12,421 bases of DNA from a virus (taxonomy: Duplodnaviria > Heunggongvirae > Uroviricota > Caudoviricetes): IMG/VR virus record IMGVR_UViG_2728369183_000006, one strand, 5' to 3'. The translations under genes and the position numbers were made by a program. Position 1 is the stretch's first letter, and each line of letters starts with the position of its first letter. Below are positions 2,602 through 12,421 of this stretch, in pieces. The notes beneath the pieces are model-generated. The model was not told where the DNA came from. It did not search any database and worked only from the letters and a program-made list of their open reading frames with translations.

Positions 2602-2673
2602 TATTATTTACTCATGTTCTAACTGATTTAATATTTATATCGAACACTGATAATTATTCTATTGGTTAGCTAT

Positions 2674-3012
2674 ATGAACAAAACGATTTTATTCTGCACG
2701 ATTATTGCCTTAACAGGATGTAAGTCTTTGGATTACGTAAAATCCGGAAAACCTGTAATGGAAGGTAATTCATTAAAAAATATTGATGAATTGTCAGGCT
2801 GCATATCCAGACAATGGGCTGGTAATGGAACACCTATAACATCCCTTCCTATTGAGAATGGGGTAAGCCTTTTAGTTCCACAGGCTATGGGGGGATATGA
2901 TGTTGTGCTTGATATCAAAAAAGCAGGAAATGGCAGTAGTTTTACTCTTTATGAACGTGTACCAGCATTAACGCCAAAAATTTTTGCTGATAGTGTTAAT
3001 GCATGTAAATAA
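2674..3012 (+). CDS. Putative outer-membrane lipoprotein, a moron inserted between I and J
   Basis: ORF with the lipoprotein signal MNKTILFCTIIALTG|C (lipobox LTGC; the +2 residue is Lys, not Asp). The longest ORF starts at TTG 2662, but ATG 2674 gives a canonical signal peptide. The segment is markedly AT-rich compared with the flanking tail genes and is followed by an intrinsic terminator. I recognise no homolog. Confidence 0.6.
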   Translation: MNKTILFCTIIALTGCKSLDYVKSGKPVMEGNSLKNIDELSGCISRQWAGNGTPITSLPIENGVSLLVPQAMGGYDVVLDIKKAGNGSSFTLYERVPALTPKIFADSVNACK

Positions 3013-3036
3013 TAGTTAATCCTGCCGTAACTCATG

Positions 3037-3064
3037 AGCCGCCTTTTGGGCGGCTTTGTTGTTT
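3037..3064 (+). terminator. Rho-independent terminator after the lipoprotein moron
   Basis: Stem agccgcc (3037-3043), loop ttttg, stem ggcggct (3049-3055), then the T-rich tract ttgttgttt. Confidence 0.6.
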
Positions 3065-3078
3065 ATGGAGTGTGAGGA

Positions 3079-6000
3079 ATGGGTAAAGGAAGCAGTAAGG
3101 GGCATACCCCGCGCGAAGCGAGGGACAACCTGAAGTCCACGCAGCTGCTGAGTGTGATCGATGCCATCAGCGAAGGGCCGGTTGAAGGTCCGGTGGNNNN
3201 NNNNNNNNNNNNNNNNNNNNNNNNNNNNNNNNNNNNNNNNNNNNNNNNNNNNNNNNNNNNNNNNNNNNACCGGTGCTGGACAGTGAGGGGAATACTAACA
3301 TCTCTGGTGTCACGGTGGTGTTCCGGGCAGGTGAGCAGGAACAGACACCGCCGGAGGGATTTGAATCATCAGGTTCCGAGACGGTACTGGGTACGGAAGT
3401 GAAATACGACACGCCGATCACCCGGACCATCACGTCGGCAAACATTGACCGACTGCGTTTTACCTTCGGTGTGCAGGCACTGGTGGAAACCACCTCAAAG
3501 GGGGACAGGAATCCGTCGGAAGTTCGCCTGCTGGTTCAGATACAACGTAATGGTGGCTGGGTGACGGAAAAAGACATCACCATTAAGGGCAAAACCACCT
3601 CGCAGTATCTGGCCTCGGTGGTGGTGGGTAACCTGCCGCCGCGCCCGTTCAATATACGGATGCGCAGGATGACGCCGGACAGCACCACAGACCAGCTGCA
3701 GAACAAAACGCTCTGGTCGTCATACACCGAAATCATCGATGTGAAACAGGGCTACCCGAACACGGCACTGGTCGGCGTGCAGGTGGATTCGGAGCAGTTC
3801 GGCAGCCAGCAGGTGAGCCGTAATTATCATCTTCGCGGGCGCATTCTGCAGGTGCCGTCGAACTATAACCCGCAGACGCGNNNNNNNNNNACGGTATCTG
3901 GGACGGGACGTTTAAACCGGCATACAGCAACAACATGGCCTGGTGTCTGTGGGATATGCTGACCCACCCGCGCTACGGCATGGGGAAACGTCTTGGTGCG
4001 GCGGATGTGGACAAATGGGCGCTGTATGTCATCGGCCAGTATTGCGATCAGTCAGTGCCGGATGGCTTTGGTGGCACGGAGCCGCGCATCACCTGTAATG
4101 CCTACCTGACCACACAGCGTAAGGCGTGGGATGTTCTCAGTGATTTCTGCTCGGCGATGCGCTGTATGCCGGTATGGAACGGGCAGACGCTGACGTTCGT
4201 GCAGGACCGACCATCAGATAAGGTGTGGACCTATAACCGCAGTAATGTGGTGATGCCGGATGATGGCGCGCCGTTCCGCTACAGCTTCAGCGCCCTGAAG
4301 GACCGCCATAATGCCGTTGAGGTGAACTGGATTGACCCGAATAACGGCTGGGAGACGGCGACAGAGCTTGTTGAAGATACGCAGGCCATTCTCCGTTACG
4401 GTCGTAACGTCACGAAGATGGATGCCTTTGGCTGTACCAGCCGGGGGCAGGCACACCGCGCCGGGCTGTGGCTGATTAAAACGGAGCTGCTGGAAACGCA
4501 GACCGTGGACTTCAGCGTGGGTGCAGAAGGGCTTCGCCATGTACCGGGCGATGTCATTGAAATCTGTGATGATGACTATGCGGGTATCAGCATCGGCGGG
4601 CGCGTGCTGGCGGTGAACAGCCAGACGCGGACACTGACGCTCGACCGTGAAATCACGCTGCCATCCTCCGGCACCACGCTGATAAGCCTGGTTGACGGAC
4701 AGGGGAATCCGGTCAGCGTGGAGGTCCAGTCCGTCACCGACGGCGTGAAGGTGAAAGTGAGCCGTGTTCCTGACGGCGTTGCTGAATACAGCGTGTGGGG
4801 GCTGAAGCTGCCGACGCTGCGCCAGCGCCTGTTCCGCTGCGTGAGTATCCGTGAGAACGACGACGGCACGTATGCCATCACCGCCGTGCAGCATGTACCG
4901 GAAAAAGAAGCCATCGTGGATAACGGGGCGCACTTTGACGGCGACCAGAGCGGCACGGTGAATGGTGTCACGCCGCCAGCGGTGCAGCACCTGACTGCCG
5001 AAGTCACCGCAGACAGCGGGGAATATCAGGTGCTGGCCCGCTGGGACACGCCGAAGGTGGTGAAGGGCGTGAGCTTCCTGCTCCGTCTGACCGTAACAGC
5101 GGATGACGGCAGTGAGCGGCTGGTCAGCACGGCCCGGACGACGGAAACCACATACCGCTTCAGGCAGCTGGCGCTGGGGAACTACAGGCTGACAGTCAGG
5201 GCGGTAAATGCCTGGGGGCAGCAGGGTGATCCGGCGTCGGTATCATTCCGGATTGCCGCACCGGCAGCACCGTCGCGGATTGAGCTGACGCCGGGCTATT
5301 TTCAGATAACCGCCACGCCGCATCTTGCGGTTTATGATCCGACGGTACAGTTTGAGTTCTGGTTCTCGGAAAAACGGATTGCGGATATCAGGCAGGTTGA
5401 AACCAGCGCGCGTTATCTTGGTACGGCACTGTACTGGATAGCCGCCAGTATCAATATCAAACCGGGCCATGATTATTATTTTTACGTTCGCAGTGTGAAC
5501 ACCGTTGGCAAATCGGCATTCGTGGAGGCTGTCGGTCAGCCGAGTGATGATGCATCAGGCTATCTGGATTTTTTCAAAGGCGAGATAGGGAAAACCCATC
5601 TGGCTCAGGAGCTGTGGACGCAGATTGATAACGGTCAGCTTGCGCCTGACCTGACTGAAATCAGGACGTCCATAACGGATGTCAGCAATGAAATAACACA
5701 GACCGTCAATAAGAAACTGGAAGACCAGAGTGCAGCGATCCAGCAGATACAGAAGGTTCAGGTTGATACAAATAATAACCTGAACAGCATGTGGGCAGTG
5801 AAGCTGCAGCAGATGCAGGACGGACGCCTTTATATTGCGGGTATCGGTGCCGGTATTGAGAACACCCCTGACGGCATGCAGAGTCAGGTGCTGCTGGCAG
5901 CAGACAGGATTGCGATGATTAATCCTGCGAATGGCAACACAAAGCCGATGTTTGTTGGTCAGGGCGATCAGATATTCATGAATGAAGTGTTCCTGAAACG

Positions 6001-7322: not shown

Positions 7323-7332
7323 TGGGGTGAAT

Positions 7333-10300
7333 ATGGCAGTAAAGATTTCAGGTGTACTGAAAGACGGCACAGGAAAACCGGTACAGAACTGCACAATCCA
7401 GCTGAAAGCAAAACGTAACAGCACCACGGTGGTGGTGAACACGCTGGCCTCAGAAAATCCGGATGAAGCCGGGCGTTACAGCATGGACGTTGAGTACGGT
7501 CAGTACAGCGTTATTCTGTTGGTGGAAGGATTCCCGCCGTCACATGCCGGGACCATCACCGTGTATGAAGATTCCCGACCCGGTACGCTGAATGATTTTC
7601 TCGGTGCCATGACGGAGGATGATGCCCGTCCTGAGGCACTGCGCCGCTTTGAACTGATGGTGGAAGAGGTGGCGCGTAACGCGTCCGCGGTGGCACAGAA
7701 CACGGCAGCCGCGAAGAAATCAGCCAGCGATGCCAGCACATCAGCCCGTGAGGCGGCAACCCGTGCGACTGATGCTGCAGGCTCAGCACGAGCAGCCAGC
7801 ACGTCAGCCGGACAGGCCGCTTCGTCGGCTCAGTCTGCGTCTTCCAGCGCAGGAACGGCATCAGCAAAGGCCACTGAAGCATCAAAAAGTGCTGCCGCTG
7901 CAGAGTCCTCAAAAAGCGCGGCGGCCACCAGTGCCGGTGCGGCGAAAACGTCAGAAACGAATGCGGCAGCGTCACAACAATCAGCTGCCACTTCTGCATC
8001 CACCGCGACCACGAAAGCGTCAGAAGCAGCCACCTCAGCCAGAGATGCGTCGGCTTCAAAAGAGGCGGCAAAATTATCAGAAACGAGCGCAGCCTCGAGC
8101 GCCAGTAATGCCGCTTCCTCGGCAACGGCGGCAGGAAATTCCGCGAAGGCGGCAAAGACGTCTGAGACAAACGCTAAGTCCTCTGAAACGGCAGCAGCAC
8201 AGAGTGCCTCCGCAGCAGCAGGCTCAAAAACAGCGGCTGCGTCGTCTGCCAGTGCAGCGTCAACAAGTGCCGGGCAGGCCTCAGCCAGTGCTAGCGCCGC
8301 CGGAAAATCGGCAGAAAGCGCCGCATCGTCCGCTTCAACAGCCACAACGAAGGCTGGCGAAGCCACTGAACAGGCCAGTGCAGCAGCGAGGTCTGCTTCC
8401 GCAGCGAAGACATCGGAGACGAACGCGAAAGCGTCGGAGACCAGCGCAGAATCCTCAAAAACGGCTGCCGCATCGTCCGCCAGTTCGGCGGCGTCATCGG
8501 CATCATCGGCGTCTGCTTCAAAAGATGAGGCGACCAGACAGGCGTCAGCAGCGAAGGGCAGCGCCACGACAGCATCCGCGAAGGCGACAGAGGCAGCTGG
8601 CAGTGCGACGGCGGCAGCACAGAGCAAAAGTACGGCGGAATCCGCGGCAACGCGCGCCGAGACAGCGGCAAAACGGGCAGAGGATATTGCATCCGCCGTG
8701 GCGCTTGAGGATGCAAGTACGACGAAAAAGGGGATAGTACAGCTCAGCAGTGCGACCAACATCACATCTGAAACGCTTGCCGCGACACCGAAGGCAGTTA
8801 AAGCAGCGAATGACAATGCGAATGGCAGGGTACCATCTAACCGAAAAGTTAACGGGAAAGCACTGACTGCGGATATAACATTAACACCGAAAGATATTGG
8901 CACTTTAAATTCAGTAACGATCTCTTTCTCTGGCGGGGCTGGGTGGTTCAAACTGGCAACGGTTACCATGCCACAAGCGAGTTCCATCGTTTACATCGCA
9001 TTGATTGGTGGCGCTGGTTACAACGTCGGTTCCCCACATCAGGCAGGCATTTCAGAACTGGTTCTACGAGCAGGCAATGGAAACCCCAAAGGAATTACCG
9101 GGGCTTTGTGGAAGCGTACAGCCGTCGGATTAACGAATTTCGCCTGGATCAACACATCCGGCGATACATATGATATTTACGTTGAGATTGGCAATTATGC
9201 GACGAGTGTAAATATCCATTGGGATTGTACTGCAAATGCGTCAGTTTCTATTTATACCTCGCCAACATATTCAGCGAGTAAGCCTTCCAGCGTTACCGGT
9301 GGTGTTGTTTATACGATGTATAGCTCACATCAGAAACCTACACCATCAGATATTGGAGCGCTGCCAACGACTGGAGGGACTATTTCAGGTCCGTTGTCTG
9401 TTACTGATGGGATCACCGGGGCACTGAAGGGGAACGCCGATACCGCGACGAAACTTGCGGCAGCCCCAAAAATTAACGGTGTTAAGTTTGATGGCTCGGC
9501 GGATATTAACCTCACGCCGGAAAATATTGGTGCATTTGCCCGACGTTCGACGGGGGCTTATGCGGATTCGAATGGAGCCGTTCCCTGGAATGCCGAATCA
9601 GGCGCTTACAATGTCGCCCGCTCTGGCGACAGCTATATTCTGGTTAACTTCTATACCGGAGTCGGAAGTTGCCGGACCCTGCAGATGAAGGCGCATTACA
9701 GAAATCGTGGTCTGTTCTACCGTTCTTCAAGAGACGGTTATGGTTTTGAGGAAGACTGGGCAGAAGTTTATACCTCGAAAAATCTTCCACCAGAAAGCTA
9801 CCCAGTTGGCGCACCAATCCCGTGGCCATCAGATACCGTTCCGTCTGGTTATGCCCTGATGCAGGGGCAGACTTTTAACAAATCTGCCTACCCGAAACTT
9901 GCAGCGGCTTATCCGTCAGGCGTGATCCCTGATATGCGTGGCTGGACGATTAAGGGCAAACCCGCCAGTGGCCGGGCCGTATTGTCTCAGGAACAGGACG
10001 GCATAAAATCGCACACCCACAGCGCCAGCGCATCCAGTACGGATTTGGGGACGAAAACCACATCGTCGTTTGATTACGGCACTAAATCCACGAATAACAC
10101 CGGGGCGCATACGCACAGTCTGAGTGGCTCTACGGGGTCTGCCGGTGTTCATACTCATGGTAATGGTATTCGTTGGCCAGGAGGCGGCGGTTCTGCGTTA
10201 GCATTTTATGATGGCGGTGGGTTCACTTATGTCCAGAATTCACAGTATCAAGTAAGCCCGGAGACTTCTTCCTATAGATCGTATTATCAACGTATTCAGA

Positions 10301-10503
10301 CACAGTCAGCAGGTGCTCATACCCACTCGCTGTCTGGTACTGCAGCAAGTTCTGGCGCACATGCACATACTGTAGGTATTGGTGCGCATACGCACTCCGT
10401 TGCGATTGGTTCACATGGACACACCATCACCGTTAACGCTGCGGGTAACGCGGAAAACACCGTCAAAAACATCGCATTTAACTATATTGTGAGGCTTGCA
10501 TAA
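7333..10503 (+). CDS. stf: Side tail fibre protein Stf (long form, about 1056 aa)
   Basis: N-terminus [37 protein letters not shown] and C-terminus ...[31 protein letters not shown] match lambda Stf from memory. ATG 7333 is preferred over the GTG at 7327. It contains an Ala/Ser-rich repetitive shaft, [22 protein letters not shown]-type fibre repeats and His-rich HxH motifs. Confidence 0.88.
7680..8720 (+). repeat. GC-rich Ala/Ser/Thr low-complexity coding repeats within stf
   Basis: Reiterated AAKTSETNA-type units recur at about 7943, 8152 and 8404 with differing synonymous codons. The region produces long spurious ORFs in other frames on both strands. Confidence 0.6.
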
Positions 10504-11087
10504 TGGCATTCAGAATGAGTGAACAAGCACGGACCATAAAAATTTATAATCTGCTGGCCGGAACTAATGAATTTATTGGTGAAGGTGACGCATATATTCC
10601 GCCTCATACAGGTCTGCCAGCAAACAGTACCGATATTGCACCACCAGATATTCCTGCTGGCTTTGTGGCTGTTTTCAACAGTGATGAGGCATCGTGGCAT
10701 CTCGTTGAAGACCATCGGGGGAAAACGGTTTATGACGTAGCGTCAGGGGACGAGTTATTTATTTCTGAACTCGGTCCGTTACCGGAAAATGTTACCTGGT
10801 TATCGCCGGAAGGGGAGTTTCAGAAGTGGAACGGCACAGCCTGGGTGAAGGATACGGAAGCAGAAAAACTGTTCCGGATCCGGGAGGCGGAAGAAACAAA
10901 AAACAACCTGATGCAGGTAGCCAGTGAGCATATTGCGCCGCTTCAGGATGCTGCAGATCTGGAAATTGCAACGGAGGAAGAAACCTCATTGCTGGAAGCC
11001 TGGAAAAAGTATCGGGTGTTGCTGAACCGTGTTGATACATCAACTGCACCTGATATTGAGTGGCCTACGAACCCTGTCAGGGAGTAA
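10503..11087 (+). CDS. tfa: Tail fibre assembly protein Tfa
   Basis: 194-aa translation ([54 protein letters not shown]...) matches lambda Tfa from memory. Its ATG overlaps the stf stop (TAATG at 10501-10505). Confidence 0.9.
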
Positions 11088-11137
11088 TCATTGGGATTAT
11101 GCCGCAGCACGTCTTAAGCAAGAACGTGCTGCGGTTG
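10922..11137 (+). repeat. Direct repeat copy A: tfa 3' end plus downstream hairpin
   Basis: About 216 bp that align by eye with 11971-12186 at roughly 85-90% identity. No computed alignment was made. Confidence 0.7.
11102..11134. terminator. Hairpin between convergent tfa and methyltransferase genes, a possible bidirectional terminator
   Basis: Stem ccgcagcacg (11102-11111) pairs with cgtgctgcgg (11125-11134) around a 13-nt loop. A T-run follows at 11145-11150, overlapping the methyltransferase stop. Confidence 0.45.
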
Positions 11138-11141
11138 GATG

Positions 11142-11810
11142 CTATTTTTTCCCTGAAGCGGAAAACATTACTACAGTACCTTGAACCTTGGTTTTAACAT
11201 TCTCGAAATGCTCTGAGAGTATATGTGTTAAGCCTTCTTCGGAATCTTTTGTGTTTGAAAAGATGCCTTTCTGATTGTAAATGCGCATCAGTTTTTGACC
11301 GAAGCTATTGTGCACAACTCCATCGCCAAGAATTGTGGCTCCGTATAGAGTTCCATCGTCAGTTAAGGCCTGCGCCGCATTGCGTATTACACAGCTTTTT
11401 GTAGATATATTTCCAGGCAGGCAGTGAAGAAGGTAAAACATGGAAATGGAATCAAATTGACCATGTAACGCCGCGGGATAAGGTTCAAAAACATCATGGC
11501 TAATTTTATGTTTAATTTTTGATTCCCCAGCCCTTGTAGATGCCGCGTTCAGGCTAGCTTCGTTCAAATCCATTAAAGATATCAGACTACTCTCAGGTAC
11601 GTGAGTAAGGTAAAACCCAGTTCCAACACCAATATCCAGATGGTTGTTACCTACATGTTCCAGAAAGTGTGGAAGAAGGTGTTCCTTTGTAGGACATCCC
11701 CATGCAAGCCGATTTGATACTCCCAAAACCCACCAGTCATAAAGCTTTAGGGTAAGTGGTGTGTAAATTTTAGCCCCATCATCTGTGTTTTTTTTCATTG
11801 ATTTCACCAT
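11142..11810 (-). CDS. Class I SAM-dependent methyltransferase, unknown substrate (accessory cargo gene)
   Basis: Minus-strand ORF of 222 aa. An alternative start at 11798 (MKKNTDDG...) has a GGTGA-like RBS. Rossmann motif I is present (HLDIGVGTGFY), with an acidic residue after beta2 (SLMD) and a FDSISMFYLLHCLP-type motif. No DPPY/NPPY motif is visible, so a DNA N6/N4-methyltransferase seems unlikely. The segment is AT-rich. Confidence 0.7.
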   Translation of the reverse strand: MVKSMKKNTDDGAKIYTPLTLKLYDWWVLGVSNRLAWGCPTKEHLLPHFLEHVGNNHLDIGVGTGFYLTHVPESSLISLMDLNEASLNAASTRAGESKIKHKISHDVFEPYPAALHGQFDSISMFYLLHCLPGNISTKSCVIRNAAQALTDDGTLYGATILGDGVVHNSFGQKLMRIYNQKGIFSNTKDSEEGLTHILSEHFENVKTKVQGTVVMFSASGKK

Positions 11811-11866
11811 GTTATAGTTTTATTTGTGAATTAAATCAATTATGGCGATGAATTACAAGGGGTTAA

Positions 11867-12136
11867 ATGCTGCCGCAGCATAGCGATATTGAAATAGCCT
11901 GGTATGCTTCGATACAGCAGGAGCCGAATGGCTGGAAGACCGTCACCACACAGTTCTACATCCAGGAATTCAGTGAGTATATTGCGCCACTGCAGGATGC
12001 TGTAGATCTGGAAATCGCAACGGAGGAAGAAAGATCGTTGCTGGAGGCATGGAATAAATATCGGGTATTGTTGAATCGTGTTGATACATCAACTGCACCT
12101 GATATTGAGTGGCCTGCAAACCCTGTCAGGGAGTAA
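11867..12136 (+). CDS. Tfa-like ORF (89 aa): novel 36-aa N-terminus fused to a conserved Tfa C-terminal domain; possibly a functional mini-Tfa or a remnant
   Basis: The C-terminal 54 aa ([54 protein letters not shown]) differ from the tfa C-terminus at only about 5 positions. An AAGGGG RBS lies 4 nt upstream of the ATG. Confidence 0.5.
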
Positions 12137-12186
12137 TCATTGGGATTATGCCGCAGACACGTCGTATGCAGGAACGTGCTGCGGTT
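11971..12186 (+). repeat. Direct repeat copy B: tfa-like 3' end plus downstream hairpin
   Basis: Aligns by eye with 10922-11137. It includes an imperfect copy of the hairpin (ccgcagacacgt...acgtgctgcgg at 12151-12184). Confidence 0.7.
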
Positions 12187-12250
12187 AGTTTGTGAGCTTT
12201 CGATAGTGGTTGTTATTTTTGCCCTTATTTGTTCCGGAGGCCATGGTTCA

Positions 12251-12421
12251 ATGGTCCGTCTGCCCCCTGTGGTGATGTCAGCAAAATCAGCCACTGCGCG
12301 AACCACAATAGCCCGGGAAGATGCTGAAGATCACCAGGTAAAGCTGTCAGCGCAGAAACTGGAAGAACTGCTCGCATCAATGGTTAAGGATGAGGTTGAT
12401 CGCAATGATGGGATTTATTGA
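12251..12421 (+). CDS. Small hypothetical protein (56 aa) ending exactly at the window edge
   Basis: ATG at 12251 is preceded by GGAGG (12236-12240) and an AT-rich stretch with a weak TTGTGA-N17/18-TATTTT promoter-like pattern (12190-12219). The translation MVRLPPVVMSAKSATARTTIAREDAEDHQVKLSAQKLEELLASMVKDEVDRNDGIY is hydrophilic and charged. I recognise no homolog. Confidence 0.35.
   Translation: MVRLPPVVMSAKSATARTTIAREDAEDHQVKLSAQKLEELLASMVKDEVDRNDGIY

Follow-up and report, generated by a model that had tools for sequence, protein, structure and literature searches.

The closest described relative of the locus examined here is the gene pair ybcY (b0562) and tfaX (b0563) in DLP12, a cryptic prophage of E. 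coli K-12, where a tfa gene is followed by ybcY on the minus strand and then by a small ORF on the plus strand. Lambdoid phages are also known for carrying morons and for the mosaic boundaries between their modules (the Hendrix/Juhala concept). The Tfa proteins (Pfam Caudo_TAP, PF02413) are themselves modular, and PMC9608196, in its summary of North et al. 2019, describes a variable N-terminal domain that binds the tail fibre and conserved C-terminal helices that trimerise. The sole relative with a solved structure is TfaU of phage Mu (PDB 5YVQ).

The window, which is the whole 12,421 nt stretch of DNA that was analysed (IMG/VR record IMGVR_UViG_2728369183_000006), is the right end of a lambdoid E. 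coli prophage and includes tail genes, J, lom, stf and tfa. Beyond tfa it carries the same gene order as DLP12, ending in an ORF of 89 aa that is referred to below as the mini ORF.

The ybcY-tfaX cassette in the window and in other genomes

The features of the locus are as follows.

7327–10503: stf, the side tail fibre gene, immediately 5' of the resident tfa
10503–11087, plus strand: resident full-length tfa, 194 aa (ORF list; 151 bits to Pfam Caudo_TAP across the full profile; PGAP 'tail fiber assembly protein')
10922–11137, plus strand: left direct-repeat copy, with tfa codons 141–194, the stop codon and a hairpin (ungapped alignment with 11971–12186)
11101–11135, plus strand: hairpin 1, separating the stop codons of tfa and ybcY (RNA fold –28.5 kcal/mol, z –4.85)
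11142–11810, minus strand: ybcY-like class I SAM-dependent methyltransferase gene, 222 aa (Pfam methyltransferase domains; PGAP; K-12 ybcY in the same place)
11811–11866, no strand: AT-rich spacer of 56 nt between the divergent ybcY and mini ORF, holding the Shine-Dalgarno (SD) motif of the mini ORF and a promoter-like site for ybcY
11867–12136, plus strand: mini ORF, 89 aa, from ATG at 11867 to TAA at 12136 (ORF list; orthologue of K-12 tfaX, b0563)
11867–11977, plus strand: 5' end derived from another gene, orfX (described below), codons 1–37, including SD and ATG (identity to locus L064; orfX family alignment)
11971–12186, plus strand: right direct-repeat copy, with tfa-derived codons, the stop codon and hairpin 2 (alignment; RNA fold)
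about 12150–12184, plus strand: hairpin 2 (–24.1 kcal/mol)
12233–12421, plus strand: gene remnant, a DUF4376 fragment with an internal stop (PGAP on the identical locus L001)

A mini-Tfa ORF with a good ribosome-binding site had been reported at 11867–12136 in a first-pass annotation made from the sequence, and both the ORF and the site were found, the latter as a Shine-Dalgarno-like motif, AAGGGG, located 4 nt ahead of the ATG. PGAP treated 11960–12136 as a pseudogene ('tail fiber assembly protein, incomplete, missing N-terminus'). The same program called a 45-aa hypothetical protein at 11060–11197 on the plus strand, across the tfa stop codon and the hairpin and into the 3' part of ybcY, and this call is most likely an annotation artefact. 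Hairpin 1 has a T-run on its 3' side at 11145–11150 and is likely to be a bidirectional terminator.

The methyltransferase gene and the mini ORF correspond to the ybcY-tfaX pair of DLP12, and the K-12 TfaX protein (61 aa) is identical to residues 1–61 of the mini ORF. However, codon 62 of K-12 tfaX has been changed from TGG to a TGA stop, after recombination with another tfa allele, whereas the window retains a complete Tfa C-terminus and the hairpin. The ybcY-like gene, for which NCBIfam matches are weak, is intact in the window and a pseudogene in K-12. The spacer between ybcY and the mini ORF is about 56 nt, compared with 68 nt to the annotated end of the ybcY pseudogene in K-12, and the downstream DNA also differs, with appY and ompT in K-12 but fragments of a DUF4376 gene and of ompW in the prophage studied here. 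The K-12 ybcY/tfaX spacer is listed with an RpoD-holoenzyme SELEX site that bears an H-NS mark (PMC3946193). In the window, a promoter-like site for ybcY was located on the minus strand at 11866–11839, in a scan that returned sites no more numerous than those in shuffled controls.

The DUF4376 fragment continues beyond the window (L001, 13834–14450) and is followed by the ompW fragment, so the right end of the prophage is a row of remnants. An identical locus is present in strain AR_0017, in which the prophage ends at the ompW fragment beside yciE and the trp operon, and this fragment was read as attR.

The cassette spacer together with the N-terminal part of the mini ORF was found in 3,437 of 5,426 complete E. 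coli genomes (about 63%). The same cassette is carried by the plaque-forming lambdoid phages ev243, 2G7b, the PhiR series (PhiR29_1, PhiR68_2), Turner and Kati, and was also found in O157:H7 and, at ssrA, in P2-like prophages. The GC content is 41% in ybcY and 27% in the spacer, against 48–54% in the tail-fibre genes, and the low values are a typical moron signature. Like lambdoid morons, the cassette is low-GC cargo on the opposite strand after the late operon and comes with a hairpin and a promoter-like site of its own. It also resembles mosaic module boundaries in that the conserved flanking sequence is common to otherwise different phages. Unlike the usual boundaries, however, the patch of homology is here a duplicated coding fragment, which is apparently open as an ORF by chance.

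Two parent genes of the mini ORF

The C-terminal part of the mini ORF is related to Tfa. The match to PF02413 scored 88.3 bits (cut-off 22.1), but covers only mini ORF residues 31–86 and profile positions 75–130 of 131, and residues 38–89 share 90% identity with the C-terminus of the resident Tfa. The homology to tfa extends ~50 nt past the stop codon and through a shared G+C-rich hairpin, hence the repeat unit is ~216 nt long (10922–11137 and 11971–12186). The two repeat copies differ at 15 positions in the first 107 nt and at 4 in the last 81 nt.

Unlike a genuine Tfa, which is encoded in the slot after stf, the mini ORF lies away from the fibre gene, 780 nt beyond the resident tfa and behind a gene on the opposite strand. 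It is fused to a foreign N-terminus and has no counterpart of Tfa residues 1–141, so that both the N-domain that binds the fibre and the opening ~15 residues of the conserved C-terminal domain are missing. Mu TfaU could be aligned only with residues 127–191 of the resident Tfa.

The 36-aa N-terminus had been described as unique, and in the protein database it was found on such mini ORFs only. However, the homologue search among IMG/VR loci identified the same 5' end on a separate ORF of 80 aa, here orfX, located upstream of a humD-like gene. A family alignment revealed that orfX represents a conserved 79-aa family across Enterobacteriaceae, and an orfX query retrieved the mini ORFs at E about 1e-9, indicating that the N-terminal half of the mini ORF is homologous to the N-terminus of this family. 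At locus L064, a ybcY homologue adjoins an intact orfX of 80 aa, which is followed by the humD-like gene, and window positions 11130–11953 share 92% nucleotide identity with this locus. Homology to orfX covers the SD, the ATG and the first 37 aa of the mini ORF. The mini ORF differs from orfX in that the conserved R23 is replaced by W and in that it lacks the motif YVTTFRDVSTQEGENRTFQLFNPNGGL, which is found in the C-terminal half, the best-conserved part of orfX, and in place of which the mini ORF has Tfa sequence. It also has no humD/umuD-like neighbour, as neither the ORF list nor PGAP includes a humD-like gene downstream of the mini ORF in the window. Searches of Pfam and NCBIfam with the mini ORF N-terminus and with orfX matched no family.

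In the loci where orfX was seen (L063–L077, for example L064 and L067, both at coordinates 3001–3243), it encodes 79–80 aa, is carried by enterobacterial prophages and lies upstream of humD/umuD-like genes and beside a dinI-like gene. In L076 and L077, orfX and the humD-like gene form a single in-frame fusion. The NCBI sources label orfX as 'DNA polymerase V', which looks like a misnomer by adjacency.

The mini ORF is chimeric, as had been proposed, with codons 1–37 derived from orfX and codons 38–89 and the hairpin derived from the 3' end of tfa. From the alignments, it can be written as an orfX(1–37)::Tfa(143–194) fusion that has taken its SD and ATG from orfX, with the join located between 11954 and 11974 and probably at the shared AGTGAG (11969–11974). 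As the N-terminus is a piece of another gene and not a dedicated module, it lends no support to a role for the mini ORF as a functional adaptor.

Synonymous divergence and disruption of the mini ORF

The first-pass annotation had estimated that the two tfa-derived copies differ at about 20 nucleotides and about 5 amino acids, and the values obtained were close to this. In an ungapped, stop-anchored codon alignment of the mini ORF with the resident tfa, 17 nt and 5 aa differences (H38Y, A46V, T56R, K63N and T84A) were found over 54 codons. By the Nei-Gojobori method, Sd was 11.5 over 37.7 sites and Nd 5.5 over 124.3 sites, corresponding to a dS of 0.39, a dN of 0.046 and a dN/dS of 0.12, a ratio that is not near 1 (Fisher p=4e-5). 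As the transitions-only test also gave p=0.007, the excess of synonymous differences is real and not due to chance.

This ratio is one of several observations that would suit a functional mini-Tfa held under purifying selection, in which the trimerisation domain, behind a borrowed leader, is made late and acts with the full-length Tfa of its own phage or of a competitor as an adaptor, co-chaperone or poison subunit. Conservation extends to the SD and ATG, in the orfX context as well, and the intact 89-aa form was found in about 1,100 E. coli genomes and in E. albertii, with an 83%-identical version of it in P2-like prophages. AlphaFold also predicted two helices in the mini ORF product (residues 29–47 and 53–70) with moderate confidence (pLDDT about 75–85). 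However, a product of this kind would have no fibre-binding domain, would be short of the ~15 residues that open the conserved C-terminal domain and would consist of two halves that are each a less conserved or an incomplete part of the parent protein. Together with the polymorphism and truncation described below, this makes a functional mini-Tfa unlikely.

The 17 differences were polarised against 16 distinct full-length tfa alleles. At 10 of the 17 sites, 8 of them synonymous, the mini ORF state was also present in intact full-length tfa genes. These shared states therefore reflect selection on the full-length genes, and the purifying selection that had been proposed for the C-terminal domain of the mini ORF is not upheld. 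The remaining 7 states, 4 of them synonymous and 3 nonsynonymous, occur only in the tfaX lineage, and this split, though in the direction expected for a functional product, is within the neutral expectation (p about 0.13, binomial by hand) and so does not discriminate.

The dS of ybcY among the sampled fused cassettes reaches a maximum of 0.07 (≤0.049 in comparisons with the window), which is far below the 0.39 found between the two tfa copies. This ceiling dates the common ancestor of the sampled cassettes and not the fusion event, and the stem leading to the fusion is bounded by L064, in which ybcY differs from that in the window at a dS of 0.22. Between the window and the cassette of a P2-like prophage (L088), divergence is 1.2% in ybcY, 6.5% in the N-terminal part and 17% in the tfa part (dS 0.57). 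The tfa parts are also mosaic. A mini ORF of the L054 type is only 2 nt away from the full-length tfa allele of L082, and the mini ORFs in L013, L037 and L038 combine the core of the mini ORF haplotype designated type A (Y38, R56, N63 and four synonymous states) with other tails. Given the shared polymorphisms, the low ybcY dS relative to that between the tfa copies and the mosaic tfa parts, most of the synonymous excess can be said to have been made by selection on intact tfa genes and was then either inherited at the fusion or imported by recombination. A low dN/dS between a fragment and its intact paralogue is no proof of function if the two copies stem from selected alleles that had diverged beforehand and if they continue to recombine with intact genes.

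The mini ORF was also found to be frequently disrupted in related prophages. The common forms were counted in the 5,426 genomes as matches to diagnostic junctions with at least 80% coverage, and the categories are approximate, with some genomes carrying multiple copies.

Window-type arrangement: 1,113 genomes
101-aa form, last 14 Tfa residues exchanged for unrelated read-through (foreign tail): 904 genomes
61-aa form, K-12 type, W62stop: 829 genomes
82-aa form, O157:H7, IS66-family element inserted: 314 genomes

The Tfa C-terminus is cut short by the stop codon, the IS66 element or the foreign tail in about 2,050 of the 3,437 genomes that carry the cassette (~60%), and the phages affected include the plaque-forming ev243, PhiR29_1, PhiR68_2 and Turner. 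All of the common forms keep, at minimum, the first 61 codons. However, nonsense and frameshift variants occur inside this part as well, as W12stop, Q29stop and a 7-nt deletion were additionally found in a sample of 70 loci, whereas ybcY, which is 2.5 times longer, had no nonsense changes and a single 2-nt deletion event in the same sample. The N-terminal 36 codons have 9 synonymous, 15 nonsynonymous and 2 nonsense polymorphisms in the 70 loci, and the pN/pS of 0.43, compared with 0.33 for ybcY (low power), could be taken to favour a function, such that this part may be under weak constraint. When transition bias was allowed for by counting transitions only, the polymorphism fitted neutrality (p=0.18–0.27; low power).

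Of the alternatives left by the first-pass annotation, the recombination product that it had offered as a fallback is retained, whereas the functional second chaperone or adaptor is disfavoured by the inherited polymorphisms, the truncations and the borrowed N-terminus.

As the mini ORF has an SD and is on the same strand as the late genes, it could be transcribed by read-through and translated, conceivably from the Q-modified late transcript. Judging from its domain content, the product would be unable to recognise a fibre alone and could at most co-oligomerise with Tfa. It is a long shot that a tfaX-type product of at least 61 codons, made from the late transcript, forms mixed oligomers with full-length Tfa and thereby tunes the side-fibre assembly of its own phage or poisons that of co-resident or superinfecting phages. 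If it did, the mini ORF would represent a small competition factor carried together with the ybcY moron.

A probable junction remnant and proposed recombination between the tfa repeats

The best explanation, to which a probability of roughly 80% is assigned, is that the mini ORF is a tfaX-type junction remnant and not a maintained chaperone. A tfaX-type remnant is a known kind of feature that has already been annotated, and the annotation of the mini ORF is settled as an allele of tfaX with a full-length tail, i.e. an orfX::tfa chimera. A new biological question would arise only if the fragment were expressed and active.

To account for the arrangement, a ybcY moron would have come to lie after the tail-fibre genes, with a copy of the conserved tfa 3' end on each side. 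One illegitimate crossover would have joined the 5' end of orfX (the promoter-proximal region, SD, ATG and 37 codons) in frame to a tfa allele, probably from a different phage, that contributed its last 52 codons and terminator hairpin. The product would be a ybcY cassette lying between direct repeats of the tfa 3' end, and the two copies would from the outset have been diverged alleles of intact tfa genes under selection. The right copy also continues to trade sequence with full-length tfa genes through homologous recombination. The repeat would then probably act as a DNA homology arm, via which the ybcY cassette and the cargo downstream of it are moved between lambdoid and P2-like prophages, and recombination between the repeats could delete the cassette. 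Hence, the tfa 3' homology that brackets the ybcY-tfaX cassette probably mediates both its spread and its loss. Any translated product would include only the two-helix trimerisation part of Tfa, with no fibre-binding domain, and would be dispensable.

A conserved RNA or DNA element, with the open frame being incidental, was also considered. This could be the IS009 candidate sRNA or a hairpin that stabilises or terminates the 3' end of the late transcript. The Rfam model RF02111 (IS009) matches the resident tfa at 10846–11044 on the plus strand with 225 bits (gathering threshold 117) and the mini ORF at 11890–12093 on the plus strand with 112.5 bits, the strong hairpin after the stop codon is kept in both copies, and the homology carries on into non-coding DNA. 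However, the match in the mini ORF is below the gathering threshold and has several broken pairs, the bias to synonymous substitutions is a signature of protein-coding sequence, and the tails including the hairpin have been replaced in about 60% of carriers. The IS009 match simply tracks the tfa coding sequence, and the model appears to represent the 3' coding sequence of tfa and not an independent RNA gene. An RNA or DNA element is therefore a highly improbable explanation for the conservation.

As a further alternative, the tfa 3' end would have been duplicated in tandem recently and in this genome itself, with the copies now drifting or being homogenised by gene conversion. This would agree with an inserted ybcY flanked by direct repeats and with the last ~80 nt of the repeats being much more alike than the first ~107 nt, but is scarcely credible. 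The same junction is found in 3,437 genomes and several phage types, so that relative to this genome it is old, and the haplotype of the right copy is distinct from all resident alleles. In addition, the divergence of 9% between the copies compares with a diversity of ybcY in the cassette of at most about 1–2%.

The model in which a junction remnant recombines through the repeats fits the tails and joins seen in other loci. In the roughly 50 sampled loci in which a left copy was detected beside ybcY, this copy has a tail of the (T/A/V)NPVRE type, with three single-residue variants, whatever the tail of the right copy. In the right copy, the type-A core beside the orfX-derived part is always present, and the tail varies with the downstream context. 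In five metagenome contigs (L097–L101), the 5' part of a full-length tfa gene is joined to the 3' part of a mini ORF and its downstream DNA, and ybcY is missing. Between them, these contigs cover all three tail types, with W62stop and the VALG read-through alongside the window type. Such joins may be the products of rare deletions by recombination between the two repeats or may be chimeras of the assembly, the latter being possible because coverage is given only for L101 (1.39x) and L097 (2.77x), and L101 alone could instead represent the donor state.

The type-A haplotype was also sought on full-length tfa genes. With a chimeric query, the best full-length match in the 5,426 complete E. coli genomes was 95.8%, and nothing above about 89% was found outside cassettes in the phage collection. 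A pattern scan of GTDB representatives for type A on a full-length tfa returned two matches, both of which were mini ORFs. The strict chimeric type-A pattern had 0 matches in metagenomes, and a gapped version of the pattern matched the 5 metagenome contigs without ybcY described above and 0 viral contigs. As type A is absent from full-length tfa in the sets searched, low-coverage contigs excepted, the donor allele is unsampled, and part of the divergence could consequently post-date the fusion.

A Campbell-type circle model, in which a tfa tail always precedes ybcY, was found to hold in most loci but not in all, and is kept only as a plausible route. The homology on the left is reduced to half a hairpin in some loci, and, as the left boundary is not always tfa-derived, further routes exist.

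Elsewhere in the window, runs of N (masked bases) are present at 744–878, 3197–3268 and 3881–3890, in the tail genes L and J and the neighbouring region. Between J and the tail assembly gene I, at 2662–3012 on the plus strand, lies a small ORF carrying a lipoprotein-like signal (…LTGC…). For this region, PGAP annotated a hypothetical protein of 255 nt, and the small ORF may be another moron.
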